DNA of 17,735 nucleotides, from positions 1 through 17,735 of the forward strand of contig JANMQY010000116.1 in the NCBI GenBank assembly GCA_031370785.1. Direction: 5' to 3'. The position numbers and the translations under genes were made by a program. This document shows, in pieces, positions 1,683 through 17,730 of the stretch; position 1 is the stretch's first letter, and every line of letters begins with the position of its first letter. Source of the DNA: Candidatus Eiseniibacteriota bacterium. GTDB taxonomy: Bacteria; Eisenbacteria; RBG-16-71-46. Under the pieces are notes generated by a model. The model was given only the letters and a program-made list of their open reading frames with translations, was not told the origin of the DNA and made no database searches.

Positions 1683-1990
1683 GGCTCGCGCTTGGATTTC
1701 GGCGGGCGCGGCCGGCTCTTGAACATCCCGAGCATGCGATCGGTAACGACGAAGCCGCCGGCCAGGTTCATGGCTCCGAACATCACCGCGACGAATCCGA
1801 GCGTCGTTTCGAGCGGACCCTGCGCCATCCCCAGCACCAGGATGCCCCCGACCACCACGATGCCGTGAATGGCGTTAGTGCCGGACATGAGCGGCGTGTG
1901 CAGGACCACCGGAACCTTCGAGATCACCTCGAAGCCCACGAACACCGCGAGCGCGAAGATGGTGAGCTGGGTGAGCAGCAACGCGCTCAT
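1679..1990 (-). CDS. pntAb: NAD(P)+ transhydrogenase subunit alpha, part 2 (membrane segment, 103 aa)
   Basis: Diagnostic LHTPLMSGTNAIHG and NLAGGFVVTDRMLGMF motifs, three hydrophobic helices, and ATGA overlaps on both sides. Confidence 0.96.
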   Translation of the reverse strand: MSALLLTQLTIFALAVFVGFEVISKVPVVLHTPLMSGTNAIHGIVVVGGILVLGMAQGPLETTLGFVAVMFGAMNLAGGFVVTDRMLGMFKSRPRPPKSKREP

Positions 1991-3165
1991 GCGCGCACCG
2001 GCTCGACGGGCGTGGCGGGGGCCGGGCCGCGCGGCGGGCGCGACGCTCCGCCGACCACGCCGTCGCGCATCACGCAGGTCTCGCGCGTGATCTCATCGTC
2101 GAAGTCGAAGGCGAGCGCGCCGTCCTTCACCAGATGCAGCAGCAGCGCCGAAATGTTGCGCGCATACATCTGGCTGGCGTGAACCGGCAGGCTGGCCGCG
2201 AGATTCGTGGGGCCAAGGATGACGACGCCATTCGCGACGACTTCGCCGCCCGCGCGCGTCAGCTCGCAGTTGCCGCCGCTTTCGGCGGCCATGTCGAGGA
2301 TCACCGAGCCCGGGCGCATGGCCTCGACCATCGCGGCCGTGATCAGCAAAGGCGCGCGCCTGCCCGGCACGATCGCGGTCGAGATCACCACGTCGGCGCC
2401 CTGCACGTGTTTGGCGATCAGCTCGCGCTCGCGCTGCTCCTGATCGGCGCTCAGCTCATTCGCGTAGCCCGTCGCGTCGGCATGGGCCGCATTGAGCGCT
2501 TCGGTCGCGATGAACGTCGCGCCCAGACTCTGCACTTCCTCGCGCACCGCGGGGCGCACATCGAACGCTTCGACCACCGCGCCGAGCCGCCGCGCGGTCG
2601 CGATCGCCTGCAGCCCCGCGACGCCGGCGCCGAGCACGAACACGCGCGCCGGGGCGATCGTGCCGGCGGCGGTCATGAGCAGAGGAAAGAAGCGCGGCAG
2701 CTTCTCGGCGGCGAGCAGCACCGCCCGATAGCCGGCGACGGTGCTCATCGACGACATCGCGTCCATGCTCTGCGCGCGCGAGATACGCGGCAGCGCTTCC
2801 ATCGCGAACGCGGTGACCTTGCGGGCGGCGAGGCGCTCGAGCGACTGCGCGGTGCGCACCGGGCCGAGGAAGGCGATGAGCGTCGTGCCTTCGCGCATCA
2901 GGTCGGCCTCGTGCAGCGCGGGTTCTTCGTTCCAGCGCGGCTCGCGCACCTTGAGCACGACGTCGCAGCCGAAGGCGGCGCCGGTGTCCATGACCTGCGC
3001 GCCCGCGGCGCGATACGCTTCGTCGGTCGCGGCGGCGAGCAAACCCGCACCGCTCTCGACCTGCACCGAAAGCCCCGCCTTGAGGAGCGGGGCGATCGAC
3101 TGTGGGAGCAGCGCCACCCGGGTCTCGCCCGGCGTGGTCTCGCGAGGAACTCCAATCGAGAGCAT
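1987..3165 (-). CDS. pntAa: NAD(P)+ transhydrogenase subunit alpha, part 1 (soluble NAD(H)-binding dI, 392 aa)
   Basis: Begins MLSIGVPRETTPGETRVALLP, the typical family start, so ATG 3165 is preferred over the ORF-track start 3411, which overlaps icd. Contains PRISRAQSMDAMSSM, LMTAAGT, Rossmann VLGAGVAGLQAIATARRLGAVVEAFDVRP and GGNCELT. Confidence 0.95.
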   Translation of the reverse strand: MLSIGVPRETTPGETRVALLPQSIAPLLKAGLSVQVESGAGLLAAATDEAYRAAGAQVMDTGAAFGCDVVLKVREPRWNEEPALHEADLMREGTTLIAFLGPVRTAQSLERLAARKVTAFAMEALPRISRAQSMDAMSSMSTVAGYRAVLLAAEKLPRFFPLLMTAAGTIAPARVFVLGAGVAGLQAIATARRLGAVVEAFDVRPAVREEVQSLGATFIATEALNAAHADATGYANELSADQEQRERELIAKHVQGADVVISTAIVPGRRAPLLITAAMVEAMRPGSVILDMAAESGGNCELTRAGGEVVANGVVILGPTNLAASLPVHASQMYARNISALLLHLVKDGALAFDFDDEITRETCVMRDGVVGGASRPPRGPAPATPVEPVRA

Positions 3166-3307
3166 GCACGCCCATTGAATCAGGGCGGAGGGGGGTGAAG
3201 CAAGGCGGGACCGGGGCGCGATCGCGCACCCGCATCGCGCCGGGGCCATGGGTCTGGTACGGTTTCCCCTCAAATCACGAATATTCGACCGGTCGGGGGA
3301 GGAGTCC
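3166..3307. promoter_or_regulatory. Divergent intergenic region pntAa/icd
   Basis: 142 bp between divergent starts. SD GGAGGAG lies just upstream of the icd ATG at 3308. Short palindromes at 3216-3227, 3278-3287 and 3286-3295. No clear -35/-10 pair identified. Confidence 0.55.
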
Positions 3308-4561
3308 ATGGGGCGTTCGCACGGCAATACGACATCCAGAGTGGTCGCGATGAATCCGATCGTCGAGATGGATGGCGACGAGATGACGCGGGTGATCTGG
3401 CAACTGGTCAAGGATCACCTGATCCATCCGTTCGTCGATATCAAGCTCGAGTATTACGACTTGGGACTGCCCGAGCGTAACCGCACCGACGACGCCGTGA
3501 CCGTGGCCGCGGCCGAGGCGATCCGCAAACACCGGGTCGGGGTCAAGTGCGCGACCATCACGCCCAATGAAGAGCGCGTCACCGAATACCAGCTCAAGAA
3601 GGCTTGGCCGAGTCCGAACGGCACCATCCGCGCGCGGCTCGATGGCACCGTGTTCCGCAAGCCGATCGTGGTGAAGAACGTGCCGCCGATGGTGCGCTCG
3701 TGGGCGAAGCCGATCATCATTGGCCGTCACGCCTACGGCGACATGTACAAGAGCGCCGAGATGCGCATCCGCCAGCCGGGCAAGGTCGAGATCGTCTTCA
3801 CTCCCGCGGACGGCAGCGCGCCGCAGCGCGCGACCATCCACGAATTCACGGCATCGGGAATCGTCCGCGGCGTCCACAACCTGGATGCGTCGATCCGCTC
3901 GTTCGCAAAGGCGTGCATCGCGTACGCGCTGAGCGACAAGGTCGACATGTGGTTCAGCGGCAAGGACACGATCGCGAAGGTGTACCACGGCGCGTTCCGC
4001 GAGATCTTCCGGCAGGAGACCGAGGCGCGGAAGGCCGATTTGGAAAAGGCAGGGATTACCTACACCTACATGCTCATTGACGATGCGGTCGCGCGAGCGG
4101 TGCGCAGCCCGGGCGGGTTCCTGTGGGCGTGCATGAACTACGACGTCGACGTGATGAGCGACATGGTCGCTTCGGGCTTCGGCAGCCTCGGCCTCATGAC
4201 CTCGGTGCTGGTTTCCCCGGACGGCCTGTTCGAGTACGAGGCCGCGCACGGAACTGTGACTAAACACTATCGGCTGCACCAGAAGGGCCAGCCCACTTCC
4301 ACCAACTCGACCGCCACGATCTTCGCGTGGACCGGCGCGCTGGCCAAGCGCGGCGAGCTGGACGGGACGCCCGAGCTGACCCGGTTCGCGCGCCGGCTCG
4401 AGGAATCAGTGATCGACACCATCGAATCCGGGGCGATGACGAAGGACCTCGCCTCGATCGCATCCCCCGCACCGCGCGGGCATGCGACCACCGAGGGTTT
4501 CATCGAAGCGATCGCCGAGAACCTGCAGGCGAAGATCGAGAACGGCGCCGCCGCGCGCTGA
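3308..4561 (+). CDS. icd: Isocitrate dehydrogenase, type II (eukaryote-like homodimeric), probably NADP-dependent (417 aa)
   Basis: [79 protein letters not shown] and MTKDLA. Start placed at ATG 3308 after GGAGGAG. Confidence 0.96.
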
Positions 4562-4605
4562 TCGAGCGAATCGAGATCCGAGGGCGGCGCCTGAGAGGTT
4601 CCCTC

Positions 4606-5433
4606 ATGAGTGAAGCGCCAATCGACGCGGACGCCTTCAAGGCGTTCGAGCACGCCGGCTGGGTCGAAGTCGCGGGGCGCTACGCCGACACCTTTGCGCT
4701 CCTGACCGCGCAAGCGATCGAGCCTTTGCTCGACGCCGCTGGAGTCCGCGCGGAAACGCGGGCGCTCGACGTGGCTTGCGGCCCCGGCCACCTCGCGGCC
4801 GCTGCGGCGCGACGCGGGGCGCGCGCGACCGGCGTCGATTTCTCGAGTACGATGGTGGCCGAAGCGCGCCGACTCCACCCCAAAGTCGAATTCCGTGAAG
4901 GCGACGCGGAGAATCTGCCGTTCTCGGACGGCTCATTCGACGCGGTGACGATCGCCTTCGGCATGCTCCACTTCGCGCACCCGGATCGCGCGCTTGGCGA
5001 GGCGCGCCGCGTGCTCGTGTCCGGCGGGCGCTGCGCGTTCACGGTGTGGGACGCGCCCGAACGAGCGGTGACCTTCGGGTTGGTCCTGCGGGCGATCGAG
5101 GAGGATGGCGACCGCAACGTACCGCTTCCGGCCGGGCCCGACTTCTTCCGCTTCAGCGAGCCGACCGAGATCAGGCGCTCGCTGATGTCGGCCGGTTTCG
5201 AAGACGCCACGGTGACGACGATTCCACTGGTCTGGCGCGTGCCTTCGGCCGACGCGCTGTTCGACATCTTCCTCGAAAGTGGCGTGCGCATCCGTGCGTT
5301 GCTCCGCGCTCAGACCCCGGAGCGCCTTGCGGCAATCCGCGCGAAAGTGCGCGAGCTGGCGCGGCCTTACGAGCGCGGTGGCGAGCTCGAGCTGGAGACA
5401 CCATGTGTGCTCGCCTCGGCGCGGCATCCCTGA
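4606..5433 (+). CDS. Class I SAM-dependent methyltransferase (UbiE/Methyltransf_11-like, 275 aa), substrate unknown
   Basis: Motif I ALDVACGPG, then GVDFS, GDAENLPFSDGSFDAV and RRVLVSGGR. SD-like GAGAGG at 4593-4598 precedes ATG 4606. Confidence 0.9.
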   Translation: MSEAPIDADAFKAFEHAGWVEVAGRYADTFALLTAQAIEPLLDAAGVRAETRALDVACGPGHLAAAAARRGARATGVDFSSTMVAEARRLHPKVEFREGDAENLPFSDGSFDAVTIAFGMLHFAHPDRALGEARRVLVSGGRCAFTVWDAPERAVTFGLVLRAIEEDGDRNVPLPAGPDFFRFSEPTEIRRSLMSAGFEDATVTTIPLVWRVPSADALFDIFLESGVRIRALLRAQTPERLAAIRAKVRELARPYERGGELELETPCVLASARHP

Positions 5434-5440
5434 GGCCCCG

Positions 5441-6277
5441 ATGACGGCGCCAGAAGTCTTCGAAGCGTTCGACCGATACGAGCGCACACGCTGGGGCGAG
5501 GTCTCTTCCGTCTACGCGGGCACGTTCGGGCGGGTGACCTCACTCGCGGTCGAGCCGCTGCTCGATGCGGCGGGGGTCGGGCAGAACGTGCGCATGCTCG
5601 ACGTCGCGTGTGGTCCCGGCTTCGCGGCGATCGCGGGCTCGAAGCGCGGGGCCTCCGTGGATGGCGTGGATTTCGCGCCCGAGATGGTCGCAGCCGCGGC
5701 GCTCGCGTGCCCGAAAGGGCGCTTCCAGGTTGCCGATGCAGGGACGCTCCCGTTCGAGCCGCTGCAATTCGACGCGGTCGTTTCGAATTTCGGCGTCCAG
5801 CACTTTCCCGATCCCGATCGCGCGCTCGCCGAGATGCATCGGGTGTTGAAGCGCGGCGGACGCCTCGCGTTCACGGTGTGGGACACGCCCGAGCGCTCGC
5901 CTGCGCAGGGCCTGCTGCAGGAGGCGGTGGCCGCGCACGGCAGCGGAGATGTCGCGCTGCCGGCCGCGCCGCCGCTCCATCGGTTTGCGGACGCCGGCGA
6001 GACGCGCCGCACGCTCGAAGCGGCAGGCTTTACCGACGTCTCGAGCCGCACGCTTTCGCTCGTATTGCGCGCAGCCACGGCGAATGAGGTCTTCGACATC
6101 TATCATCGGGGCACCGTGCGGCTCGGCGCCATGCTCCGCGTCCAGCCACCCGAGGCGCTCACCCGCATTCGTGACGCCTTTACACGTTCGCTCGAGCCCT
6201 ATCATTCGGCCGAGGGCGTCGCGGTGCCGATGCAGGCCGTGCTCAGCACGGCGCGTTCGCGGCCGGATTCGGCGTAA
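5441..6277 (+). CDS. Class I SAM-dependent methyltransferase, paralog of the upstream gene (278 aa)
   Basis: MLDVACGPG, GVDFA, ADAGTLPFEPLQFDAV and HRVLKRGGR. ATG lies 7 nt after the upstream TGA, with GAGG overlapping that stop. Confidence 0.9.
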   Translation: MTAPEVFEAFDRYERTRWGEVSSVYAGTFGRVTSLAVEPLLDAAGVGQNVRMLDVACGPGFAAIAGSKRGASVDGVDFAPEMVAAAALACPKGRFQVADAGTLPFEPLQFDAVVSNFGVQHFPDPDRALAEMHRVLKRGGRLAFTVWDTPERSPAQGLLQEAVAAHGSGDVALPAAPPLHRFADAGETRRTLEAAGFTDVSSRTLSLVLRAATANEVFDIYHRGTVRLGAMLRVQPPEALTRIRDAFTRSLEPYHSAEGVAVPMQAVLSTARSRPDSA

Positions 6278-6525
6278 GGCGCGCCGCACACTCCCAAACC
6301 GCGTCCGCTGAAGTCCCCCGCCGCCTGCCCTCGCACGTGCGATTCGCGCGACGTGCGATGCGCCGCGCAAGCAATCGACTGCGTGCAATCACCCGACCCC
6401 CACCTGCGTCCGCACCGCCAGGTCGTCATCTGTACGGCGGCTTCGCAGATTACGAACCGGCAACGCTTGCGCGACAGCCACTTCCGGCCGGAAGGTCCGC
6501 GGCGCGGTGATTTGCACGATTCGCG

Positions 6526-6541
6526 CGGCACACCTCGTGCG
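6526..6541 (+). promoter_or_regulatory. Possible sigma-54 (-24/-12) promoter for the envelope operon
   Basis: CGGCAC-ACCTC-GTGC: GG (6527-28) and GC (6539-40) are separated by exactly 10 nt. It deviates from the consensus TGGCAC-N5-TTGC at two positions and lies about 110 bp upstream of GTG 6650. Confidence 0.3.
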
Positions 6542-6649
6542 TTGCGGGGCCGCCGCGTCGCGGCTCAGTCAGGCGCGGCTTGCACGCGTGCCGACTCCAT
6601 AGAGCCGGCGCGAGATGCGTGCATCCCGGATCTCAGTGAGGAGTCCATC

Positions 6650-9600
6650 GTGCGCCACGTTTTCCATTTCCGTCTGCTTGCGCCGCTTGTTGTCCTGGCG
6701 GTACTGCTCGTCGCCGCGGCACCGGCCGTGGCGGGTCCGTTCACACGCCTACAGGTGCTGCTCCCCGGCGAGACCGCGGCCCCGGGCACCGGTTCGGGCA
6801 AGACCGGCACACCCAGGGCGCAGACCACCGGCGTTCCATTCAATGTCACGGTGCGCGCCTGCGACGCCTCGTGGAACCTGGTCAACACCGCGACCGACGT
6901 CGTGCGCCTGCTGGCTTCGGACGCCAGCGCGACGCTGCCGGGCGCGACCCAGCTCCAGTCCGGCACGCTGTTGCTCACGGTCACTCTGAACGCCGGCGGC
7001 AGCTTCACGTTCTTCGCGCACGACGAGACCGACGGCACGATTCCCGATGGCACCTCAGCCGCGGTGAGCGCGCTCGTGCTGCAGGGCTTCCAGTTCTCGG
7101 GCATCTCGCAGAAGAATCAGACTGCGGGCGTGCCGTTCAGCATGACGCTTACCGCGCGCGACCCGTCGGGCAATATCGTGACCGGATACAACGGCTACGT
7201 GCGCCTCAAGGAGACCACGAGCTACGGTGACGGACGCACCTCGCCGGACTCGGTGCAGCTCGTGAACGGCTCGTGGTCGGGTGGCCTCGCGGCCTATCGC
7301 GCGGACGAGACCAGCATCAATCGAGGCAATGTGAACTTCTACGCGTTCCTCAGCAACGCGACGGGCAAGAACGGCACCAGCGACCCGTTCACCGTGCACC
7401 CCGGCAGTTTCGCGCGCGTGCAGCTCATCGTCCCGGGCGAGACCACCCTGCCGGGCAGCGTGACCGGCAAGACCGGAACGCCTGCTTCGCAAGGCGGAGG
7501 GCAGGCGTTCTCGGTCACCGTGTATGCGACCGACGCCTACTGGAATCCCCTCGTCAGCAGCGATCAGGTGCGCCTCACCTCCGGCGATGCTGCGGCCAGC
7601 ACGCCGCTCACCGGCGCCATGAGCAACGGCGTCAAGGTGTTCAGCGTCTCGCTCGGCACCGTGGGCACGCAGACGCTCACCATCGCAGATCAGACCAACG
7701 GCTCGATCCAGGGCATGACCAGCCCCGGCATCGTCGTGATTCCGAGCGCAGCCGACCACTTCGCGATCAGCACCATCGCTTCCCCGCAGGTCGCGGGCAC
7801 GCCGCTCAGCGTCACGATCCGCGCTGCCGACGTCTCCAACAACACGGTGCCGGGCTACAACGGCCAGGCCGTGCTCTCCGCCAACACCGGCGCGGGCAGC
7901 ATCTCGCCCGAGCTGATCACGTTCAGCAACGGCGTGTGGACGGGAAGCATGGTGTTCCGTGGCGCGGGTGGCGCGGTGAGCTTCACCGCATTCGACTTTT
8001 CGGCTCCGCCTCACACCGGCACCAGCAATAGCTTCGTGGTGCAGCCGGGTCCGTTCTCGGGTCTTCAGGTGCTGCTCCCCGGCGAGACGCCGCAGGGCGG
8101 TACAGTCGATGGCAAGAACGGCGCGCCCACCGGGCAGACGGCGGGCGCGGCGTTCACGCTGACGCTGCGTGCGGTCGACGCGTACTGGAACCTGGTCGGC
8201 GGCATCAACGATCGCATCGCGCTCGGCTCGAGCGACGCCTTCGCCGGCATGCCGGCCGAGACCACGCTGGCGGGCGGGCAGCTGCTGCTGCCGGCGAGGC
8301 TCTACCGCACCGGCCCGCAGCGCATCTGGGCAAGTGACGTCGACCAGCCCGGCATCACGCCCGACACCTCGGCATACGTGACCGTCACCGGAGGTCCGTT
8401 CGCACGCGTCCTGATCCTGGCGCCCGGCGAGTCGCCCGCGCCGGGCACTGTGACCGGCCGCACCGGCACTGCCACCGATCAGTCCATCAACTACGCGTTC
8501 ACGTGCACCGTGCTTGCCGCCGACTCGTGGTGGAATCCGGTCGGCGGCGTGACCGACGTGATGCACGTCACCTCGGGCGATCCTCTGGCCACGCTGCCGC
8601 CAGACGCGGCGATGGTCGACGGTGTCGCGCAGATGAACGTGCGGCTCGCGACCGGCGGCTTCCAGCAGATCACCGTCAGCGACGTGACGCAGCCGTCCAG
8701 GACCGGCAGCACGACGCAGGTACGCGCGATCTCGACCGGTTTCCACCTCGAGGCGACGGTCACACCCACCACGGCGCAGGCCGGCGGCCCGTTCACGCTC
8801 AGCGTCAAGGTCACGAACGATGCGGGCAGCGTGATCCAGGAGATCAACTCGTTCGTCACCATCGAGGTGCAGAACGCGTCCTCGCAAGCCCCGGGACGCG
8901 GCACCTTGCTCACCACCCAGTTCCAGCTCCTGCAGGGCCAGCGCACGGTCTCGGAGAACTACTCGTTCGCCGAGCCCATCGTGCTGATCGCGCGCGACGA
9001 CGCGGGCAACGCGCCGGCGGCGAGCAACGTGATCACGATCACCCCGGGCGCGCCTTCGCAGGTGCTGCTCAGCAGCGCGCCGACGTGGGTGGGCGGCGAC
9101 AAGAACGCCACCATCACGGCGCGCGTCACCGACGACTACGGCAACGGCGTCCCGGACCGTCCCATCGACTTCATGCTGCTCACGGGCACCGGTTCGCTGA
9201 GCGCAATCGACAGCCTGACCGACTCACTGGGCACGGCACGCGCCAATTTCCTGAGCCCGCGCCGTCCCGAAATCGACCGGCTGCGCGCGGTGTCGGGCAC
9301 GCTGAGCGCCGACCTCGATCTCGAGACTGCGTTCGTGGACCCGGGCGCGCCGGGCGGAACGATCACCAGCTACCCGAATCCGTTCCACCCGCCGGCGCAG
9401 GGCGTGAGCATCGCCTACAAGCTCGACGACAACGCGCAGGTCACCATCCGCATCTTCACCCAGAGTGGCGTGCTCGTGCGGCTCGTGGAATTTGCGAGCG
9501 GCAGCACGGGCGGCTCAGCCGGGCTCAACACATTCGTGTGGGACGGAAAGAACGGCGCCGGCAACGTGGTGGCGAGCGGCGGTTACCTGGCGCTGCTCGA

Positions 9601-9661
9601 AGCCCGCGGAGCAGGCCAGACCCTGAACATCATGCGGCGCAAGATCGCCGTGGTTCGCTAG
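6650..9661 (+). CDS. Large secreted Ig-like repeat protein with Big_1-like domain and C-terminal FlgD-Ig/T9SS type-A-like sorting domain (1003 aa); putative surface adhesin or cargo
   Basis: SD GAGGAG (6638-6643) before GTG 6650. Sec signal MRHVFHFRLLAPLVVLAVLLVAAAPAVA-G. Thr/Gly/Ser-rich beta repeats. Big_1-like segment ATITARVTDDYGNGVPDRPIDF...TDSLGTARA. C-terminus SYPNPF...IRIFTQSGVLVR...WDGKNGAGNVVASGGY...RRKIAVVR. Confidence 0.85.
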   Translation: MRHVFHFRLLAPLVVLAVLLVAAAPAVAGPFTRLQVLLPGETAAPGTGSGKTGTPRAQTTGVPFNVTVRACDASWNLVNTATDVVRLLASDASATLPGATQLQSGTLLLTVTLNAGGSFTFFAHDETDGTIPDGTSAAVSALVLQGFQFSGISQKNQTAGVPFSMTLTARDPSGNIVTGYNGYVRLKETTSYGDGRTSPDSVQLVNGSWSGGLAAYRADETSINRGNVNFYAFLSNATGKNGTSDPFTVHPGSFARVQLIVPGETTLPGSVTGKTGTPASQGGGQAFSVTVYATDAYWNPLVSSDQVRLTSGDAAASTPLTGAMSNGVKVFSVSLGTVGTQTLTIADQTNGSIQGMTSPGIVVIPSAADHFAISTIASPQVAGTPLSVTIRAADVSNNTVPGYNGQAVLSANTGAGSISPELITFSNGVWTGSMVFRGAGGAVSFTAFDFSAPPHTGTSNSFVVQPGPFSGLQVLLPGETPQGGTVDGKNGAPTGQTAGAAFTLTLRAVDAYWNLVGGINDRIALGSSDAFAGMPAETTLAGGQLLLPARLYRTGPQRIWASDVDQPGITPDTSAYVTVTGGPFARVLILAPGESPAPGTVTGRTGTATDQSINYAFTCTVLAADSWWNPVGGVTDVMHVTSGDPLATLPPDAAMVDGVAQMNVRLATGGFQQITVSDVTQPSRTGSTTQVRAISTGFHLEATVTPTTAQAGGPFTLSVKVTNDAGSVIQEINSFVTIEVQNASSQAPGRGTLLTTQFQLLQGQRTVSENYSFAEPIVLIARDDAGNAPAASNVITITPGAPSQVLLSSAPTWVGGDKNATITARVTDDYGNGVPDRPIDFMLLTGTGSLSAIDSLTDSLGTARANFLSPRRPEIDRLRAVSGTLSADLDLETAFVDPGAPGGTITSYPNPFHPPAQGVSIAYKLDDNAQVTIRIFTQSGVLVRLVEFASGSTGGSAGLNTFVWDGKNGAGNVVASGGYLALLEARGAGQTLNIMRRKIAVVR
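6734..8737 (+). repeat. Four ~115 aa intragenic protein repeats (type A) interleaved with two type B Ig-like units
   Basis: Type A units start at 6734 (GPFTRLQVLLPGE), 7403 (GSFARVQLIVPGE), 8048 (GPFSGLQVLLPGE) and 8393 (GPFARVLILAPGE). Each continues G[KR][TN]G...Q...F...DxxWN. Type B units start near 7085 and 7754 and share QxAGxPxSxTxxAxDxSxNxVxGYNG. Confidence 0.85.
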
Positions 9662-9669
9662 GAGGAATC

Positions 9670-10929
9670 ATGAACCGCATCGAAATGCGCCTCACACGCA
9701 CCGCGGCGCTGCTCGCCGCACTCGCACTGCTCGTCACGGTCCCGGCACGCGCCGCGGATCAGGCCGGCGGTATGCCCGGCGAATGGCTGTCGCAGTACGC
9801 GGGCGCCCGCGCGCTCGGGTTGGGCGGCGCCTACGTCGCGACCGCCGACGATGCGCTCGGCATCCTGTGGAATCCATCGGGGCTCAGCCAGCTCGACCGG
9901 AACCAGCTCATGTTCGAGAACCTGCAATTGTTCGAGGACACCTCGGTCAACGGCTTCAGCCTCGCGGTCCCCGGCTCGTGGCTGCCGAGCTTCGGGCTCA
10001 GCATGATTTCGCTCAGTTCGGGAAACTTCCAGCGCACCAACGACGTCAACGATCCGCTCGGCGCGTTCCGTGAAGGCGAGACCGCGTACTTCTTCACCAT
10101 GTCGAAGAGCTTCAGTCCGCGCTTCTCGATCGGCACCAACCTCAAGCTGGTGCAGCAGACCATCGAGGACTTCAGCGGCGGCGGCTTCGGCTTCGACCTG
10201 GGCGCCATGTACCAGGTGAGCCCGCAGATCAGGTTCGGCTTCTCGGCGCTCAATCTGGGCGGCCCCTCGATCACGCTGCGCCAGACTGCCGAGACCTACC
10301 CGACCGAATATCGCGGTGGCGTGTCGCTGGCCGTGCTCAACGGGCGCGCGTTCATCACCGGCGAGATCGACCAGTCGACCGGCATCGGCACGCGCTTCCA
10401 CGGTGGCGCCGAGTACTGGATCCAGTCCGCCATCGCGGCCCGCGTCGGCTACGACGACTCGCGCGCGACCGGCGGCTTCTCGTACCGCTTCCTGCCGCAG
10501 TACCAGTTCGACTACGGCGTCGCGGATCATCCGCTCGGCATGACGCATCGCTTCGGGCTCACCTACCGCTTCGGCGGCTACTTCGCCGCGAGCCACGCCG
10601 ATCCCGAAGTGTTCTCGCCGACCGGCGAGAAGGCGGTCACCAAGATCGACCTCAACGCTCACACCAAGGCCGGCGCCGAGAGCTGGACGCTCGAGCTGCA
10701 CGACAAGTCGAACGCGGTGGTGCGCAAGTTCGGCGGCGCCGGCCAGCCTCCGGCCCACCTGCTGTGGGACGGCAAGGATGAGTCGGGCATGCCGATGGCA
10801 GACGGCACCTACCGCTACCAGCTCACGGTCAAGGATCGGGACGGCCGCGTGCTGATCGGTCGGATGCGTCAGGTCGAGATCTCGACGAACGGTCCGCAGG
10901 GTGCGGTGCCCGTGCTCCCGGTGCAGTAG
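9670..10929 (+). CDS. PorV/PorQ-family (FadL-like) outer-membrane beta-barrel with fused C-terminal FlgD-Ig-like domain (419 aa)
   Basis: SD GGAGG (9661-9665) and signal peptide ending ARA-A. Family hallmark GARALGLGGAYVATADDALGILWNPSGL. Amphipathic strands (GFGFDLGAMY, FGFSALNLG, RFHGGAEYW, ARVGY) end at HRFGLTYRF (10572). Followed by PEVFSPTGE...WDGKDESGMPMADGTYRYQLTVKD. Confidence 0.85.
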   Translation: MNRIEMRLTRTAALLAALALLVTVPARAADQAGGMPGEWLSQYAGARALGLGGAYVATADDALGILWNPSGLSQLDRNQLMFENLQLFEDTSVNGFSLAVPGSWLPSFGLSMISLSSGNFQRTNDVNDPLGAFREGETAYFFTMSKSFSPRFSIGTNLKLVQQTIEDFSGGGFGFDLGAMYQVSPQIRFGFSALNLGGPSITLRQTAETYPTEYRGGVSLAVLNGRAFITGEIDQSTGIGTRFHGGAEYWIQSAIAARVGYDDSRATGGFSYRFLPQYQFDYGVADHPLGMTHRFGLTYRFGGYFAASHADPEVFSPTGEKAVTKIDLNAHTKAGAESWTLELHDKSNAVVRKFGGAGQPPAHLLWDGKDESGMPMADGTYRYQLTVKDRDGRVLIGRMRQVEISTNGPQGAVPVLPVQ

Positions 10930-10961
10930 TTGATGGCGCACGCGAAGGCACACACCACGGC

Positions 10962-10989
10962 GAAGCGCGCGGTTCACGCCGCGCGCTTC
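10962..10989 (+). other. Intra-operon GC-rich stem-loop without U-tract
   Basis: GAAGCGCGCGG (10962-10972), loop TTCACG, CCGCGCGCTTC (10979-10989): a perfect 11-bp stem between the barrel stop and the SD of the TPR gene. Confidence 0.7.
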
Positions 10990-11010
10990 CGCATCACCAC
11001 GGAGGATGCG

Positions 11011-14000
11011 ATGGCGAAGGGAATGCGCACGACGCGGGGGGCCCTCAGCCTCGCGCTCGCCGCGCTGGCTGTGGGCCTGATCGTGAGCCCGGGGCACGCG
11101 GCGCGCACCCGGTCATCGGCCGAGGCGCCGAAGGCAGCCGGTGATGCGCTGCGCGACGCCGGACGCGCGTTCGATCGCGCGCGGCTCGCCGCCGGCGATG
11201 AGCGCCTTGCCGCGCTCCGCGAGCTGGACCAGAGCGTCGAGTCACTGATGAAGCAGGGCCTGAACGACGACCAGCGCACCGCCGCCAGCTTCTTGGCGGG
11301 CGCGGCGCGCTGGGAGCTGGGCGATGGGGATGCGGCGGGCAACGCGTATCGCGACGCGCAGAAGGGCGCCGCCAAGGGCCCGTTCGAAGACGACGCAGCA
11401 TTCGCCACCGTGCGCGCGCTGGAAGCGGCGCACCGTGACGCCGACGCTGCCAGGGAGTGGATCAAGTTCGAGCAGCGCTTCCCGACAAGCCCGCTGCTGG
11501 GTGAAGCCCGCCTCGCGCGCTCGTGGAACGCGCTCCGCCGCGGTGATGCGGAGGAGGCGCGCAAGTCACTGGCCGCGCTGCAGGTCTCTTCGCCGTGGAT
11601 GGCGAACGACGCCCGCGCTTCGCTCGCGCGCGCCGCGGCGTTGCAGCTCTCGGGACGGTCGCAGGAGGCGCTGGCCGCTCTCGGCGCTTCGCCATCCGGA
11701 CCGTGCGCCACCTATCTGCGTGGCCTCGCGCTCTCGGCGAGCGGCAACCAGTTGCGCGCCGCCGCCGCGTTCCAGGACGTGGCCGATCGCTGGCCATCCT
11801 CACCGCTTCACGACCCGGCGCTGCTCGCCAAGGCCAACGTGTTCCTGCGCGCGAAGGACTATCGCAGCGCGGCCGCTGAATTCGAGCGCATGCAATCGCG
11901 CGTCACCAATCCCCAGATCCTCGCGGAAGCCGAAGTGCGCGAAGCCGGCGCACGCTTCCTCGCCGGGCAGGGCGACACCGCACTCACGCTGTTGCGGAGC
12001 GTGGTGGATCGGCATCCCGGCACCGACGCCGCGGCGCGCGCCCAGTTCCTGGTGGCCGAGGCGCTGGCTGGCAAGGCGGACTACGCCACCGCGATCGTCG
12101 AATTCAACCAGGTGCTGACCCATTACTTCGAGCACCAGGTCGCGGCCAGCGCGCAGTACCGGATCGGACGCTGCCTCGATGCCATGGGCCGGCGCGCCGA
12201 TGCGACCGGCACCTATCAGGCGGTGGTGCGCGGCTACCCGCTCGAGCCCGAAGCGCCGGCGGCCGCGTATCTGGCCGGCGTCGGACTCATGCTGCAGAAC
12301 AAGCCGCTCGCTGCCGCGCCCTACTTCCAGATCGTGCTCGATCGCTATGCGACGCAGCGCGACAGCGCCGGCCGCGCCAAGTTCTCGAGCCCAGAGCGCC
12401 AGGAATTGGTCGAGGCCGCGCTGTGCCAGCTCGAACTCGCCTATCACCGAGTGGGTGACCTGGGGCAGCTCTCGGGTGCGCCGCACCTGCTGCTGCAGCG
12501 CATGCCGCCGAGCCGCTCCGAATGGAGGGCGTGGGCGCTGGTGATCGACGCCGACGCCTCCGCAGCGCAGGGACGTTACGCCGAAGCGCAGGCCGCGCTC
12601 GCTCAGGTGCATCGGGACTTCGCGGGCCGCGACGTGGCGATGTCGGCCGATGAGCTGCTGGCGTGGACCTACGCGCGTCAGGGCCACGATAGCCTGGCGA
12701 TCGTGACGGCAGAGGCGCTGGTGGCGAGCGCCGGCGCATCGAACGGGCGGGTGGTGAGCGGCGCGGTGCTCGCGATCGCGCACGAGCGCTTCAACCAGAA
12801 GCGCTACCGCGAGGCGGCCTCGGCCTACGAGGACTTCGTGCGGCGCTTCCCCAAGGATCCGCAGAAGCTGACCGCGCTCTATCAGGCGGGGCTCTGCTAC
12901 GTGCGTCTCGATCGCGCCGGCGATGCGGTGGATCGCTGGGAGACCATCGTGCGCGACAGCGCCGACTCTCCGCTCGCCGAGCGGGCGTGGGCACGGGCCG
13001 GCGACCTCTACTTCCAGGCCGCGCGCTACACCGATGCGAAGCGCTGCTACGAGGGCCTGCTCGCGCACTTCGCGGGCAGCTCGGCGGTGTCGATCGCGAC
13101 GCTGCGTCTGGCGCAATGCGAGTACAACGCCGGCCGCGACGCCGAGGCGCTGCAGGGCTTCGCCGGCACGATCGAGCAATTTCCGGGCACCGCGGCCGCG
13201 CGCGAAGCGCAGCGCGGCACCGAGCGCGCGCTCTACCGGCTGAGCCAGAAGCCGGGAGGACAGGCAGTGCTGGCGAGGCTGGTCGACCAGTTCCCGAACA
13301 GCGCGTTCGCGGCCGACGCCCAGTTCCAGATCGCGCGTCGCCACTACGACGCCAAGGAGTGGAGCGAAGCGGCCGAGGGCTTCCGCAAGGTGGTGAGCGG
13401 CTTCCCCGGCTACTCGGCGGCCGATCAGGCGCAGTTTCTGCTGGCCGACGCTTCGGCCCAGGCGCATGCGAGCGACGATGCGCGCCAGGCCTACGAGCAG
13501 TTCCTGGCGTTCTTCCCGGAGAGCGACCTGCGCTCGACGGTGCGCTTCCGGCTCGGGCTGCTCGACTTCGAGGGCAAGGACTACGCACGCGCCGCGGTGT
13601 CGTTCACGCAGGTGCTGGCCGAGAGCGCCAGCGCCGACATCGCCAGCGCATCCGCATACAACCTCGCCCTGTGCCAGCGCATGATCGGGCAGAGCGAAGA
13701 GGCGCGCAGCGCCCTCGAGCGCTACCGCAGCCAGCATCCGGATGACGCGCGCGCCGCCGAAGTGGCCTACCAGCTCGGCGACATGAACGAAACCGCCGGC
13801 CAGACCGCGGAGGCGTTGCGCGAGTACCAGCGCGCGCTGGCCGCGAAGCATTCGGCTGCTCTCGGGGTCGAGCTGCTGTTCCGCATGGGACGCTGCCACG
13901 AGCAGCTGAAGGAGACGACTGCGGCGCTGCGCTGGTACGAGCAGGCCGCGGCCGTGCCGCAGCGCGCGAACGCGTTCCGGCTCTCGGCGCTGGCACGCTG

Positions 14001-14145
14001 CGCCGCCCTGTACGAGACACGCAAGCAGTACACGCGGGCGGTGGATGCCTACCGCGACATCGCCCGTCATTCCCAGGACCACGAGCTGGTGGCGGCGGCC
14101 TCAGGCCGTGCGAGCCAGCTGGAGGCGCTGTCGCGCCCACGCTGA
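11011..14145 (+). CDS. Large exported tetratricopeptide-repeat protein (CpoB/BamD-like TPR pairs, 1044 aa)
   Basis: SD GGAGG (11001-11005) before ATG 11011, signal peptide ...LALAALAVGLIVSPGHA-A. Many helical repeats with [FYH]PxS-type turns (RFPTSPL, RWPSSPL, RHPGTDA, QFPNSAF, FFPESDL) and AxY/FxLG helices along the full length. Upstream TTG/ATG at 10930/10933 lack an SD. Confidence 0.88.
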   Translation: MAKGMRTTRGALSLALAALAVGLIVSPGHAARTRSSAEAPKAAGDALRDAGRAFDRARLAAGDERLAALRELDQSVESLMKQGLNDDQRTAASFLAGAARWELGDGDAAGNAYRDAQKGAAKGPFEDDAAFATVRALEAAHRDADAAREWIKFEQRFPTSPLLGEARLARSWNALRRGDAEEARKSLAALQVSSPWMANDARASLARAAALQLSGRSQEALAALGASPSGPCATYLRGLALSASGNQLRAAAAFQDVADRWPSSPLHDPALLAKANVFLRAKDYRSAAAEFERMQSRVTNPQILAEAEVREAGARFLAGQGDTALTLLRSVVDRHPGTDAAARAQFLVAEALAGKADYATAIVEFNQVLTHYFEHQVAASAQYRIGRCLDAMGRRADATGTYQAVVRGYPLEPEAPAAAYLAGVGLMLQNKPLAAAPYFQIVLDRYATQRDSAGRAKFSSPERQELVEAALCQLELAYHRVGDLGQLSGAPHLLLQRMPPSRSEWRAWALVIDADASAAQGRYAEAQAALAQVHRDFAGRDVAMSADELLAWTYARQGHDSLAIVTAEALVASAGASNGRVVSGAVLAIAHERFNQKRYREAASAYEDFVRRFPKDPQKLTALYQAGLCYVRLDRAGDAVDRWETIVRDSADSPLAERAWARAGDLYFQAARYTDAKRCYEGLLAHFAGSSAVSIATLRLAQCEYNAGRDAEALQGFAGTIEQFPGTAAAREAQRGTERALYRLSQKPGGQAVLARLVDQFPNSAFAADAQFQIARRHYDAKEWSEAAEGFRKVVSGFPGYSAADQAQFLLADASAQAHASDDARQAYEQFLAFFPESDLRSTVRFRLGLLDFEGKDYARAAVSFTQVLAESASADIASASAYNLALCQRMIGQSEEARSALERYRSQHPDDARAAEVAYQLGDMNETAGQTAEALREYQRALAAKHSAALGVELLFRMGRCHEQLKETTAALRWYEQAAAVPQRANAFRLSALARCAALYETRKQYTRAVDAYRDIARHSQDHELVAAASGRASQLEALSRPR

Positions 14146-14175
14146 ACCCGATCCCCGCCACCAAGGAGCCATACC

Positions 14176-14826
14176 ATGTTCGAGAATTTTGACTGGCTGG
14201 AAGCCATCCGCCGAAGCCCGGTGATGCTGGTGATCCTGGGCTGCAGCGTGATCACGCTCGGATTCGCGATCGAGCGCCTGCGTTACTACTGGTCGCGTCG
14301 CGGCGACGTCGCGGCGCAGCTCGACCAGGCCGCGGAGAAGGTCCGCGCTGGAAACTGGAAGGAAGCCGCCTGGGCGTGCAGCGTGATCAAGCACCCGGCC
14401 GGCCCGGTCGCGGCGAGCGTGCTGCAGAGCGCGACCTTGAGCCGTGAAGCACAGGAAGAGAAGATGCAGATCGCGTTGAGTGAGCAGCGCCTGCTGCTCG
14501 AGCGCAACCTCGGCGTGCTCGGCACCATGGGCAACACCGCGCCGCTGATCGGACTGCTCGGCACGGTGTGGGGCATCATGCGCGCGTTCCATGATATGGC
14601 GCGCACCGGTTCCGCCGGTCCCTCGGTGGTCGCGGCCGGCGTGGCCGAGGCATTGTTCACCACCGCTGCTGGCCTGCTGGTGGCGGTGCCCGCGGTGATG
14701 CTCTACAACCATTTCATCCGCCAGATGAGCGTCATGCTCACCGTGGCCGAGAACCGCGCGCGCACCCTGCGCATGGCGATCGCCGAGGCGGACCACAGCG
14801 AGCGCAGCTCGCGGCGCTCGGCGTAG
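14176..14826 (+). CDS. exbB: MotA/TolQ/ExbB proton-channel protein (216 aa)
   Basis: SD AAGGAG. LGTMGNTAPLIGLLGTVWGIMRAF and AGVAEALFTTAAGLLVAVPAVMLYNHF retain the Thr and Glu channel residues. Three TM segments. Confidence 0.93.
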   Translation: MFENFDWLEAIRRSPVMLVILGCSVITLGFAIERLRYYWSRRGDVAAQLDQAAEKVRAGNWKEAAWACSVIKHPAGPVAASVLQSATLSREAQEEKMQIALSEQRLLLERNLGVLGTMGNTAPLIGLLGTVWGIMRAFHDMARTGSAGPSVVAAGVAEALFTTAAGLLVAVPAVMLYNHFIRQMSVMLTVAENRARTLRMAIAEADHSERSSRRSA

Positions 14827-14834
14827 GGCGACCG

Positions 14835-15245
14835 ATGAGGCGCTCCCGCCGTTCGTCCGACCAGATGTCCGGGATCAACGAGCCCAACATGACGCCGTTG
14901 ATCGACGTCTCGCTGGTGCTGGTCGTGATCCTCATGGTCGCGACGCCGCTCGCGCTTCAGTCCGGCATCGGCGTCTCGAGCGCTTCGTCCAGCGGACGGC
15001 GCGCCGCGCCCAGCAAGACCGAACGCGTCGAGGTGAGCGTGCTTTCGACCGACAGCATCATGGTCAATCGGACCCTGGTGCGGCGCGACGCGCTTGCGCT
15101 GACGCTGCACCGGGTGCTCGAAGCGAGCGCCACGCGCCAGGTCGTGGTGCGCTGCGCCGACGGAGTGCTGCACGGCGACTTCGTGTCGGTGATCGACGAG
15201 GCGCGTGCGCAGGGGGCGGCCGAGATCGCGGTCGCGGGGAGGTAG
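14835..15245 (+). CDS. exbD: ExbD/TolR family protein 1 (136 aa)
   Basis: PNMTPLIDVSLVLVVILMVATP single TM with the essential Asp. C-terminal VVVRCADGVLHGDFVSVIDEARAQGAAEI. Confidence 0.92.
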   Translation: MRRSRRSSDQMSGINEPNMTPLIDVSLVLVVILMVATPLALQSGIGVSSASSSGRRAAPSKTERVEVSVLSTDSIMVNRTLVRRDALALTLHRVLEASATRQVVVRCADGVLHGDFVSVIDEARAQGAAEIAVAGR

Positions 15246-15246
15246 C

Positions 15247-15669
15247 ATGGCGTACACCCGGAGTCGCCAGGAGCCGATCACCAAGATCAACGTGACGCCG
15301 ATCATCGACGTCGCGCTGGTGCTGGTCATCATCCTGCTGGTCACAGCTCCTCTGATGTCGGCCTCCAACCTGCCGGTCAACCTGCCGCAGGCCCACACTC
15401 GCGAGGCAGAGGATCAGCGCAACCTCAGCATCACTCTGGGCTCGGACGGTCGGCTCGCGGTGGACGACCACGACGTGACCCGCAGCCAGCTCGTCGCGGT
15501 GATCGCCGCGCGCCTGGCCGAGTCCGGCAATCGCGACCTGCTGGTGGTGGTGCGCGCCGACTCGGGCACGACGTACGCCAGCGTGCGCGACCTGCTCGAA
15601 GCCGCCCGCCTGGCGGGCGCAAAGCGGTTGGCCATCGCCACCCGTCAGAAGGTCGAGGGCGCACTGTGA
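15247..15669 (+). CDS. exbD: ExbD/TolR family protein 2 (140 aa)
   Basis: SD GGAGG before ATG 15247. INVTPIIDVALVLVIILLVTAP, VNLPQA and VVVRADSGTTYASVRDLLEAARLAGAKRLAIAT. Confidence 0.93.
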   Translation: MAYTRSRQEPITKINVTPIIDVALVLVIILLVTAPLMSASNLPVNLPQAHTREAEDQRNLSITLGSDGRLAVDDHDVTRSQLVAVIAARLAESGNRDLLVVVRADSGTTYASVRDLLEAARLAGAKRLAIATRQKVEGAL

Positions 15670-16610
15670 CCCGCTCGGCTCTCAGACTCAGCTCCGCGCT
15701 CCAGTACGATGCGCAGGCCGTCCGCTCGCGTACCCGCAGCGCGATGGGCGTGAGCATCGGCGTGCACACGCTGCTGCTGCTCTGGCTGGTGTTCGCACCC
15801 AAGCCCGCCCCGGCGCAGCCGCCGCTTACCGAGATCACGCTGCTCGAGCCCGGCGACGCCGCTCCCGCGGCGCCGGCCGCGCCCGCACAGGCCGCGGCGC
15901 GCACCGAAGTCGGCGCGGCAGCGACCAGCGAGCGCGAGGTGCACTTCCGCCGGGCCGCCAACCGCGCCGATCTGGCGCCGACTCCGCAGAGCGATCTCGC
16001 GATCGACGATCAGTTGAGCACGCGCCTGGCCGCGCTGCAGAGCAAGGAAGTGGTCTCGGCGGCCCGCGTCGGAACGTCGGCGGGGGCGATGTGGGGTCAC
16101 GCCGCCACTCCCGCCACGGTGTCCGGTACAGGAACGTCCGGCTCGGTCGCGCTCAATCGCGGCGGCGAAGGCGCGGGCCCGGCGCTCGCACTGACGCGCG
16201 GCACCGGCGTCGGCAGCGCCCCGGCGCTCGCGCCGGCCACGGTTGCGACCCGCGTGGGCGAGGCGGCGCCCGAGAAGGCCGGCGAGAGCGGCGCGCGGCG
16301 CACGCTGGCCGGCGCCACACTGATGGGACCGATCGCCGACCGGCCGGTGCGCGTGCACGTCACGCCCGATTACCCCGAGTGGGCCAAGCGCGACGCGGTC
16401 GAAGGATCGGTCACGCTCTACTTCGTGGTGCGCGCTGACGGCACCATCAAGGAGAACGTGCTGGTGCAGCGCACCGCAGGTTTCGAAGACTTCGATGAGA
16501 ACGCCCGCGCCGCGCTTCGCGCGTGGCGATTTGAGCCGCTGCGCGACGGTCGCACCGGCGAGCAGTGGGGCACCATCACGTTCCGCTTCCGCCTGCGCGA
16601 CGGCGGCTAG
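15666..16610 (+). CDS. tonB: TonB-family energy transducer (314 aa)
   Basis: GTGA overlap with exbD2. N-terminal TM with S-x3-H (VSIGVHTLLLLWLVF). Low-complexity Ala/Gly/Thr linker. TonB_C domain PDYPEWAKRDAVEGSVTLYFVVRADGTI...FDENARAALRAWRFEP...ITFRFRL. Confidence 0.9.
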   Translation: MTRSALRLSSALQYDAQAVRSRTRSAMGVSIGVHTLLLLWLVFAPKPAPAQPPLTEITLLEPGDAAPAAPAAPAQAAARTEVGAAATSEREVHFRRAANRADLAPTPQSDLAIDDQLSTRLAALQSKEVVSAARVGTSAGAMWGHAATPATVSGTGTSGSVALNRGGEGAGPALALTRGTGVGSAPALAPATVATRVGEAAPEKAGESGARRTLAGATLMGPIADRPVRVHVTPDYPEWAKRDAVEGSVTLYFVVRADGTIKENVLVQRTAGFEDFDENARAALRAWRFEPLRDGRTGEQWGTITFRFRLRDGG

Positions 16611-16633
16611 GGCAAGGCGAAAGGAGCATGGCG

Positions 16634-17677
16634 ATGACTCGAAGCATGAATCTCATGACCGCGGCCGGAGCGTGCGCCGTTGCGCTTGCGCTGGCCGCCG
16701 CATCGACCGGGGCAGCGCCGTCCAAGAGCGCGGCCCCAGGCAAGAGTGCCGCGCCGCCCACGCATAAGTCGGCGAGCGCAAGCTCCGCGGCCGGCGCGTC
16801 CGCCACGGCGACTTCCGACACCAACCTCGTGCTTCACGGCGGGCAGGAAGGGACCGCGTTCCGCAGCCTGACCATCGAGGGCGAGGACCGCGTGCACTAC
16901 GAGTTCCCGCGGCCCGTGCTGGATGTCGACCTCGATCCCGAGAAGGCGCCGGGGCTCGACCGCGGCACCGCGGCCGACGTGCTCGATCGCAATCCTCCGG
17001 ACATCACGACCGTGCTGGTTCAGCAGTCCGCGACCGATGCGTCGCCTTATCTCGCGCAGCCCTGGCTGCACGAGTTTGCGACCGGCGCAGTGGCTCGCTT
17101 CCGTCCGACCGTCGATGAAGTCGAGAGCTGGAAGCTGACCGTGGTCAACGCCAAAGGCGAGCCGGTCGCCGCGTTCCAGGGCCACGGCAAGCCGCCCGCC
17201 GAGATCGCATGGGACGGCCGCGCCTCTTCGGGTGCGCCGGTGACCCCGGGCATCACTTACTCCTATGTATTCGAAGCTCGCGACCGCGCCGGCAACAAGC
17301 GCAACTTCGTCGGCGAAGGATTCCGCGTCGCCGCCTATCACCTGGAGACGCCGGCCGGCCCCGTGCTCGCCTTCACGGGCGCTGACCTCGCGAGCGGCGC
17401 GGCCGCCGCGCGCGGCCCGGGCGGTACGAGCGACGCCATTGCGCCCCCCGTGGTGCGCGAAGCCGCGCAGTGGATCAACCAGGCGCCGTCGGTGCGCACG
17501 CCGCTCAAGCTGACCGTGACCGCGCGCTCGCGCGATCAGGCGACGTCGCTCGCCGCGTACCTCGCGCGCACACTCACGCCCCTCGTGATCGGCGATCCCG
17601 CGCGACTGCGCATGACCGCCAGTGTCGAAGCCGACGCACCGGAATCGGGCACCATTCGCATCGAGCCCACGCACTGA
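16634..17677 (+). CDS. Exported hypothetical protein with FlgD-Ig-like (WDG) domain and possible degenerate OmpA-like C-terminus (347 aa)
   Basis: SD AAGGAG (16621-16626) is best spaced for ATG 16634, with ATG 16628 as an alternative. Hydrophobic signal, Ser/Ala linker, then ESWKLTVVNAKGEPVAAFQGHGKPPAEIAWDGRASSGAPVTPGITYSYVFEARDRAGN, colinear with the barrel's C-terminal domain. Confidence 0.8.
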   Translation: MTRSMNLMTAAGACAVALALAAASTGAAPSKSAAPGKSAAPPTHKSASASSAAGASATATSDTNLVLHGGQEGTAFRSLTIEGEDRVHYEFPRPVLDVDLDPEKAPGLDRGTAADVLDRNPPDITTVLVQQSATDASPYLAQPWLHEFATGAVARFRPTVDEVESWKLTVVNAKGEPVAAFQGHGKPPAEIAWDGRASSGAPVTPGITYSYVFEARDRAGNKRNFVGEGFRVAAYHLETPAGPVLAFTGADLASGAAAARGPGGTSDAIAPPVVREAAQWINQAPSVRTPLKLTVTARSRDQATSLAAYLARTLTPLVIGDPARLRMTASVEADAPESGTIRIEPTH

Positions 17678-17691
17678 CATCGGTGCCCGAG

Positions 17692-17730
17692 CACACGGCC
17701 CGCCCTGGAAAGGGGCGGGCCGTTGTGTTT
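17692..17730 (+). terminator. Rho-independent terminator closing the envelope operon
   Basis: ACGGCCCGCCC (17695-17705) pairs with GGGCGGGCCGT (17713-17723), plus a U-G pair and a GGAAA loop. Followed by U-rich TGTGTTT, starting about 15 nt after the last stop. Confidence 0.85.

Follow-up and report, generated by a model that had tools for sequence, protein, structure and literature searches.

An eight-gene cassette of a Candidatus Eiseniibacteriota bacterium that points to a proton-driven machine linking an inner-membrane motor to a barrel of the outer membrane and a large surface protein

Here we describe an eight-gene cassette (g1 to g8) on contig JANMQY010000116.1 of a Candidatus Eiseniibacteriota genome (GenBank assembly GCA_031370785.1); the whole stretch of 17,735 nucleotides that was analysed is referred to as the window. 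The systems closest to the cassette in build are known from Bacteroidota and Myxococcus. Type IX secretion systems (T9SS) had been found only in Bacteroidetes as of 2015 (10.1101/031039). In Bacteroidota, cargo and barrel form a cognate pair where the cargo gene lies upstream of the gene for its own barrel, and a PorE partner, made up of tetratricopeptide repeats (TPR) and an OmpA domain, ties the cargo-barrel pair to the wall (PMC9143113, PMC12618676). Such cargo-barrel systems include PG1035-PorP-PorE of Porphyromonas and both Fjoh_3952-3951-3950 and SprB-SprF of Flavobacterium (PMC9143113, PMC12618676). In Myxococcus, TPR proteins link a motor to adhesin-holding barrels, and GltG is predicted to accommodate a GltF strand in its TonB domain (PMC11761067, PMC9389320).

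The cassette is not a member of the canonical T9SS, Ton, Tol-Pal or Agl-Glt systems, and no published description of it was found in the literature searched, although supplements or closed papers might mention it. It is a motor system of the Ton/Tol/Agl kind, and by analogy its working would combine that of the cargo-barrel-PorE tether with that of the Agl-Glt core. Its gene content points to a proton-driven envelope machine in which a motor of the inner membrane would be coupled to a large surface protein and a barrel of the outer membrane. We consider it probable that g1 is exported via SprA and held on g2, and that a private ExbB-ExbD-ExbD-TonB motor pulls this complex through g8 and g3; the contacts and the output are what we infer.

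Layout of the cassette and its likeness to described systems

Positions 6650-17677 of the window hold eight open reading frames (ORFs), all on the plus strand. This bore out the gene set of an earlier note made from the sequence alone, which had described eight co-directional, tightly spaced genes between a 372-base spacer and a terminator. From g1 to g8, the intergenic gaps are 8, 81, 30, 8, 1, -4 and 17 bases. The features, with protein lengths in amino acids (aa) and immunoglobulin abbreviated to Ig, are as follows.

6278..6649, no strand: upstream spacer of g1, 372 bases, intergenic
6650..9661, plus strand: g1, 1003 aa; signal peptide, about nine Ig-like beta repeats, Big_1 (816-869) and a FlgD-type C-terminal domain (CTD)
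9670..10929, plus strand: g2, 419 aa; PorV/FadL-type barrel with a fused C-terminal FlgD-like Ig domain
11011..14145, plus strand: g3, 1044 aa; TPR solenoid, exported and predicted to serve as a scaffold in the periplasm
14176..14826, plus strand: g4, 216 aa; ExbB/TolQ-type pentamer subunit of the MotA_ExbB family
14835..15245, plus strand: g5, 136 aa; ExbD1
15247..15669, plus strand: g6, 140 aa; ExbD2
15666..16610, plus strand: g7, 314 aa; TonB-like, with a TonB_C domain (234-310)
16628..17677, plus strand: g8, 349 aa; signal peptide, disordered linker, TonB-box-like motif, Ig domain and OmpA/MotB-fold C-domain
17695..17723, plus strand: intrinsic-terminator-like hairpin at the operon end, 12 pairs and a T-rich tail

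No sigma-70-type site was found in the spacer at 6278..6649. Terminator-like sites numbered 4 in the window and 6.7 in shuffles, so the value of the hairpin at 17695-17723 lies in its position and not in its rarity. Family searches assigned g1 to Big_1 and FlgD_ig, g2 to PorV_fam, g3 to TPR, g4 to MotA_ExbB, g5 and g6 to ExbD, g7 to TonB_C and g8, weakly, to FlgD_ig. The families named in the earlier note were recovered; TIGR04183, the model for type A CTDs, was not matched by the CTD of g1 at E<=0.05. The fused Ig domain of g2 and the OmpA/MotB-fold C-domain and TonB-box-like motif of g8 are additions to that note. The same searches of the eight proteins returned no TonB-dependent receptor, TolB, Pal, SprA or PorKLMN family, and no enzyme, sugar-binding domain or inner-membrane transporter was linked to the cassette.

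Like the cargo-PorP-PorE tether, the cassette has a CTD gene that immediately precedes the gene for its own 14-strand barrel, brings TPR and OmpA-like functions together in one cluster and would rely for export on a SprA encoded elsewhere. Unlike it, the cassette has a barrel of the PorV family with a fused Ig domain, a CTD of the FlgD type, TPR and OmpA-like parts on two proteins (g3 and g8), altered motifs and a TonB-box-like strand in g8, a Ton-type motor in the operon and a host in which GldK/L/M/N were not found. With the Agl-Glt core (aglR, aglQ, aglS and gltC, D, E and G; PMC3169522) it shares one TolQ/ExbB-type and two TolR/ExbD-type subunits. A TonB-like transducer, a large TPR scaffold and an outer-membrane barrel holding a surface protein (PMC3169522, PMC11761067, PMC9389320) also recur, and so does a protein that is disordered in part and bears a TonB-box-like strand, GltF there and g8 here (PMC11761067, PMC9389320). 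In contrast to Agl-Glt, the GltC model was unmatched in the host genome, g7 has no cytoplasmic FHA domain, no GltD/E/G/F model was among the operon matches save the AgmX/PglI tail (23 bits; cut-off, 40), and the barrel and surface protein belong to the repertoire of T9SS parts. We regard this likeness as an analogous build, in architecture only, and do not claim homology.

The Ton system has in common with the cassette the motor families, the membrane Asp of ExbD, the S-x3-H helix of g7 and TonB_C. It differs in that no receptor occurs in or beside the 61 cassette loci surveyed, that the motor of the cassette is predicted to act on a soluble protein of the periplasm, and that there are two different ExbD proteins, only the first of which always keeps its Asp. 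Receptors exist unlinked in the host (11 matches), so a role in trans is possible. A TolQ/TolR-like motor, a TPR protein and an OmpA-type domain recall Tol-Pal; unlike Tol-Pal, the cassette has no TolB, its g8 has altered motifs and lacks a conserved lipobox, and the true Tol-Pal of the host lies on another contig.

Proteins of the cassette

The signal peptide of g1 was assigned by eye. Three profiles of its Ig-like repeats matched nothing else in the host genome, and an Atlas search with the body of the protein (best, 0.88) gave no informative family. The protein ends in RRKIAVVR, and the best T9SS matches of its CTD were the C-termini of the PorZ and PorU models, far under the cut-offs. All 15 aligned relatives had constant length, at 54-68% identity. 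On sequence grounds, g1 is predicted to be a SprA cargo and a surface protein. Its neighbour g2 scored 118 bits with PorV_fam NF033709 (cut-off, 90) and merely 31 bits with the PorV equivalog (cut-off, 250). The model of g2 (pLDDT, 83) comprised a helical N-terminal hatch, in which W67-N68-P69 is invariant, 14 barrel strands (counted from the DSSP line) and then the Ig domain. Its best PDB matches were 8gl6_F and 6h3i_F, the chains F of T9SS translocon entries, with FadL proteins next. The model predicts that the fused Ig domain is periplasmic, because it is placed after the last of the 14 strands. PorP/SprF and type B CTD models were absent from the matches of g1 and g2.

The motor genes follow the TPR gene. 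No motor subunit reached an Exb or Tol equivalog cut-off: g4 fell below both (tolQ, 111 bits of 221; exbB, 98 of 206), and g4 and g6 scored higher with TolQ/TolR than with ExbB/ExbD models. Residues T130, E158, T162 and T163 of g4 are invariant. The roles of the charge-path residues of ExbB, ExbD and TonB come from work on E. coli, and these Ton-type residues are intact in the corresponding proteins of the cassette. Protein g7 consists of about 25 cytoplasmic residues, a membrane helix with S30-x3-H34, a long linker and the TonB_C domain, and neither a cytoplasmic domain nor an FHA domain was found in it. The membrane Asp of ExbD1 (D24) was present in 45 of 45 loci with the segment matched (35 + 10 loci). 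That of ExbD2 was present in the window and in 32 of 34 main-clade loci, was Gly in the other 2 (L043 and L044), and was Asn in 11 of 11 divergent-clade loci (among L062 and L077-L097). An ExbD1-ExbD2 heterodimer with one essential Asp is suggested by these sequences, since the Asp is constant in ExbD1 and lost from ExbD2 in 13 of 45 loci.

The TPR protein g3 showed 24-63% identity across 16 aligned relatives. It scored 217 bits with the YbgF/CpoB model via its repeated TPRs, and 87 bits with the PorW/SprE model (cut-off, 250). The automatic reading of g3 as YbgF/CpoB was rejected on its length of 1044 aa, its match in 9 stretches and the presence of a true CpoB elsewhere in the host (contig C8).

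Protein g8 is comprised of a disordered N-terminal part, a conserved motif (residues 77-86), a FlgD-like Ig domain (153-235) and the C-domain. The motif was ranked first among 2,928 windows, taken from the alignments of g1, g2, g3, g7 and g8, against a profile of nine TonB boxes from host receptors. It scored 7.9, compared with 6.0 for the next window, 1.8 for the best window of g2 and -2.6 to 14.8 for true boxes that were left out. The Ig domain is about 40% identical to that of g2 over 57 residues. Over about 110 residues, the C-domain aligned with OmpA domains of the DotK/TagL/MotB type at a Z of 9-10 and an rmsd of about 3. Compared with what we take to be the OmpA consensus, main-clade proteins have changes in both wall-binding motifs and those of the divergent clade in one. 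No conserved lipobox was present in g8, the PorE model gave 24 bits among the operon proteins (cut-off, 600), and PDB chains searched by sequence with the g8 profile yielded no match below E 0.5. A complex prediction for g7 205-314 with g8 62-349 gave 0.00 twice; its controls were not folded, and it counts neither way. Many proteins of 1,000-4,000 aa (P0136 and P0150-P0270) carry 7-23 tandem copies of FlgD-like Ig domains of the g2/g8 type, and the Atlas connects such domains with FlgD-OmpA proteins of spirochaetes.

Distribution of the cassette and the T9SS of its hosts

The survey covered 151 genomes of the host's phylum, including one marked unpublished (G015). For g2, 11 candidates were scored per genome; the g8 survey was a stricter first look. 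A full g2 orthologue was obtained in 51 genomes and a true g8 in 54, a union of 56 of 151; these searches did not detect the cassette in the other 95. Of 40 regions fetched, 38 contained the cassette, from 37 genomes of which one has two copies; adding L002 gives 39 loci, and 12 more g2-positive genomes lay outside the fetched set. Left out were L073, L074, L004 and L005 (PorV paralogues with no cassette) and L001 (near-identical to a counted locus). The order g1-g8 was complete in 28 of the 39 loci, another 10 reached a contig edge without a break in the order, and 1 was split; g1 and g2 were adjacent in 36, with 2 loci ended by a contig edge and the same single split. In the split genome (G084), g1 lies 296 kb away and is 62% identical, and similar kinase genes adjoin both places, so the split may reflect a rearrangement or a misassembly. 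In four cassette-negative genomes (92-100% complete), a search with g1 gave CTD-level matches only.

Gene order also was retained at much lower identity, which supports the view of the operon as a self-contained, conserved unit. A second copy in genome G043 (L062) is 25-38% identical, keeps the order and encodes a 2,362-aa cargo with related repeats. The g8 alignment of this divergent clade was used to find 22 metagenome loci, all collinear as far as they extend, 4 of them spanning g1-g8, and the CTD ending of the clade is the same as in the main clade. Host receptor ORFs matched none of the 39 and none of the 22 loci, flanks included, nor did the host SprA ORF. For TolB and Pal, one unrelated flank gene each was noted (a WD40-kinase gene in L039 and an OmpA gene in L060), neither of them conserved. 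Receptors, TolB and Pal are no routine part of the clusters surveyed, and no neighbouring gene was conserved across families.

The cassette has a patchy distribution in the host's family, also within genera. Among g2 relatives in genome records, four of five were labelled Ca. Eisenbacteria; the closest (87%) was labelled Saccharimonadaceae, which we take to be a mislabel. Labels beyond the phylum for relatives of g8 and g2 were Krumholzibacteria, Latescibacterota and, for one Atlas cluster (0.95), mostly Elusimicrobiota; these are labels only, without gene order, and most of the 30 proteins looked up had no taxon label. Apparent transcription of a relative (about 88-94% alike) in two metatranscriptome runs of one study was rejected on account of flat depth over genes and spacers. 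With contigs of up to 59 kb in addition, DNA carry-over is likely. The phylum also contains motor-less fusions, in which a giant cargo gene precedes PorV-TSP3-OmpA (L004 and L005) or PorV-TPR (L073 and L074); the CTD proteins of these four loci are 2,375-3,300 aa long.

The host genome (3.44 Mb, 68% G+C) is 100% complete by markers. It encodes SprA outside the operon, on contig C113 (TIGR04189, above cut-off); export without SprA, a possibility that the earlier note had left, is not supported. The gene (C113:13145-19399; 2,084 aa) adjoins, by eye, two opposite-strand LptF/G-like genes and a peptidase-like gene, and no por genes lie next to it. GldK, GldL, GldM and GldN were not found in the host, in a search that had no T9SS-positive control and might miss distant homologues. 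With a profile built from g1, 111 host ORFs were found to end in the CTD, g2 included, which leaves about 110 CTD proteins, some of more than 2,000 aa. The PorV family had 12 matches at 11 places, 7 of which directly follow a CTD protein. An end motif special to the cargo preceding PorV genes was tried and rejected as unconvincing (3 of 7 versus 11 of 104). Three CTD protein-PorV pairs sit behind a TonB-dependent receptor gene (C16, C126 and C133), which indicates that such pairs serve uptake-like loci. These three places each hold a receptor, a large CTD protein and a PorV-family barrel, and C32 holds a receptor and PorV; SusD-like capture proteins of the phylum may have PorV paralogues as their anchors. 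On C142 (9194-24103), downstream of a PorU-like protein (1,429 aa) come PorV, a CTD protein and a gene for a large barrel that matched SprA weakly; this cluster probably is a housekeeping PorU-PorV pair.

Beside the 11 receptor matches, the host has nine TonB_C matches and three MotA_ExbB matches: g4, one on C8 in a complete Tol-Pal set that includes TolB, Pal and CpoB, and one in a cluster on C45. The latter (C45:12611-19900; L098) comprises PBP-family, TPR, anti-sigma-antagonist-like, ExbB, two ExbD and TonB genes. An ExbB of the C45 type (E<=1e-45) occurs in 121 of the 151 genomes, and in 56 of 59 in the host's family, so that receptors appear to have their own motor. The C45 cluster is a candidate general receptor motor and, speculatively, an energiser of SprA where GldLM are missing.

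Proposed mechanism and its alternatives

In the mechanism that we favour, g1 would pass the inner membrane through Sec and then, by means of its CTD, leave through the host's SprA in the outer membrane, in keeping with what is known of T9SS. Gene order and the cognate cargo-barrel pairs of Flavobacterium suggest that g2 would then collect and retain g1. The Ig domain of g2, g3 and g8 together would supply the scaffold, Ig and OmpA-like domain of a PorE, as their predicted folds allow, and the TonB domain of g7, powered by ExbB5-ExbD1-ExbD2, would grip the TonB-box-like strand of g8 and pull. The output we favour is a cyclic repositioning, retraction or release of an adhesin-like g1 on the g1-g2 complex. 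By analogy, the cassette would equip the static cargo-PorP-PorE tether with a motor, in a build resembling that of Agl-Glt. Directed gliding of the Myxococcus type is less likely, because no part has a cytoplasmic domain for a track. Going further, the cassette might be a third, independently assembled surface-motility or adhesin-retraction machine, in which a Ton-type motor moves a T9SS-exported Ig-repeat adhesin on a PorV-like barrel in lineages with a GldLM-free T9SS; we regard this as a tentative and rather doubtful extension. If true, it would join the motor logic of Myxococcus to the export route of Bacteroidota.

Several points weigh against this mechanism. Every pair contact and the output are deduced, with a supported interface for none. 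The conservation of g1 is unusual for an adhesin, and a structural or capture protein would fit too. The TonB-box test was post hoc, with boxes picked by eye and 2 of 11 receptor ORFs dropped, and averaging over alignments favours conserved windows in it. The Z of 9-10 for the g8 C-domain barely exceeds the level of unrelated folds, g8 relatives fell far below the cut-off of Pfam OmpA (4 of 9 at E 0.02-0.04), and the wall-binding consensus is one that we presume. The relatives also are not independent, 31 g8-positive genomes being of one family, and the flanks are short (about 3.5 kb upstream and 5.5 kb downstream), often ended by a contig edge.

Export offers two other roles for the motor. 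The earlier note had proposed that ExbBD-TonB may replace PorLM to power export, release or movement of the surface protein; a replacement of PorLM as export motor is not supported, and as a general replacement in these bacteria it is scarcely credible. It is consistent with the presence of SprA (144 of 151 genomes, including 53 of 56 cassette genomes) and with the finding of GldM in 0 of 151 genomes, in a search without a positive control. From these counts, however, 91 of the 144 SprA-positive genomes have no cassette, some of them 97-100% complete, and these 91 have no GldM match either; with SprA in 144 genomes and the cassette in 56, a general substitution is not what the distribution suggests. 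A private energiser, extracting only g1 from SprA with no role after display, is quite unlikely. That GldK/L/M/N were not found, that g3 reaches 87 bits on the PorW/SprE model, and that cognate shuttles collect cargo at the translocon (PMC12618676) would suit it, but the host's roughly 110 other CTD proteins, some larger than 2,000 aa, do without such a motor in their loci, as far as the three MotA_ExbB matches of the genome show, as do cargoes of 2,400-3,300 aa beside PorV fusions (L004 and L073).

Receptor-less uptake, in which g1 captures a substrate and the motor moves the FadL-like barrel hatch through g8 and the Ig domain of g2, is unlikely, if less so than either export role. The FadL/PorV fold and NP hatch motif of g2, the three CTD-PorV pairs behind receptor genes and the high conservation of g1, which suits a fixed ligand, speak for it. 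Its best TonB-box window in g2 nonetheless scores 1.8 against 7.9 in g8, and the cassette is linked to no enzyme, no sugar-binding domain and no transporter of the inner membrane. To our knowledge, PorV keeps a FadL-type fold without a role in import, which we also count against it. A Tol-like tether, whose motor would make g8 bind and release the wall in cycles and so fasten either the outer membrane or a lattice of g1 to the peptidoglycan, for example at division, seems slightly less plausible than a private energiser. The OmpA/Pal-type fold at the end of g8, the 217 bits of g3 on YbgF/CpoB and the preference of g4 and g6 for TolQ/TolR models are as it would predict. Against this, the host has a full Tol-Pal with its own CpoB, the absence of a detectable cassette from 95 of 151 genomes is odd for a core envelope function, and the wall-binding motifs of g8 are altered. 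Very unlikely, in turn, is a motor that serves the unlinked receptors beside an unrelated cargo-barrel pair. The 11 receptor matches and the TonB_C domain of g7 would permit it; order and content, however, are kept down to 25-38% identity, a separate ExbB-ExbD-TonB cluster (C45) and nine TonB_C matches are available, and g8, with the same Ig type as g2, comes after the motor genes.

Known outputs of ExbBD/TolQR-type motors are few (receptor gating, Tol-Pal and Agl-Glt), and the cassette suggests another, tied to T9SS parts. Its short, fixed parts list is amenable to expression. The 91 genomes with SprA and neither GldM nor the cassette also raise the question of what powers T9SS export in the phylum.

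The remainder of the window was inspected by eye. Positions 279-6277 hold transhydrogenase subunits (minus strand), an NADP isocitrate dehydrogenase and two tandem SAM methyltransferases, genes that adjoin the cassette only within the genus. Positions 1-230 consist of C, G and T runs and look like low-quality contig-end sequence, and contig C117 overlaps the final 81 bases of the window.

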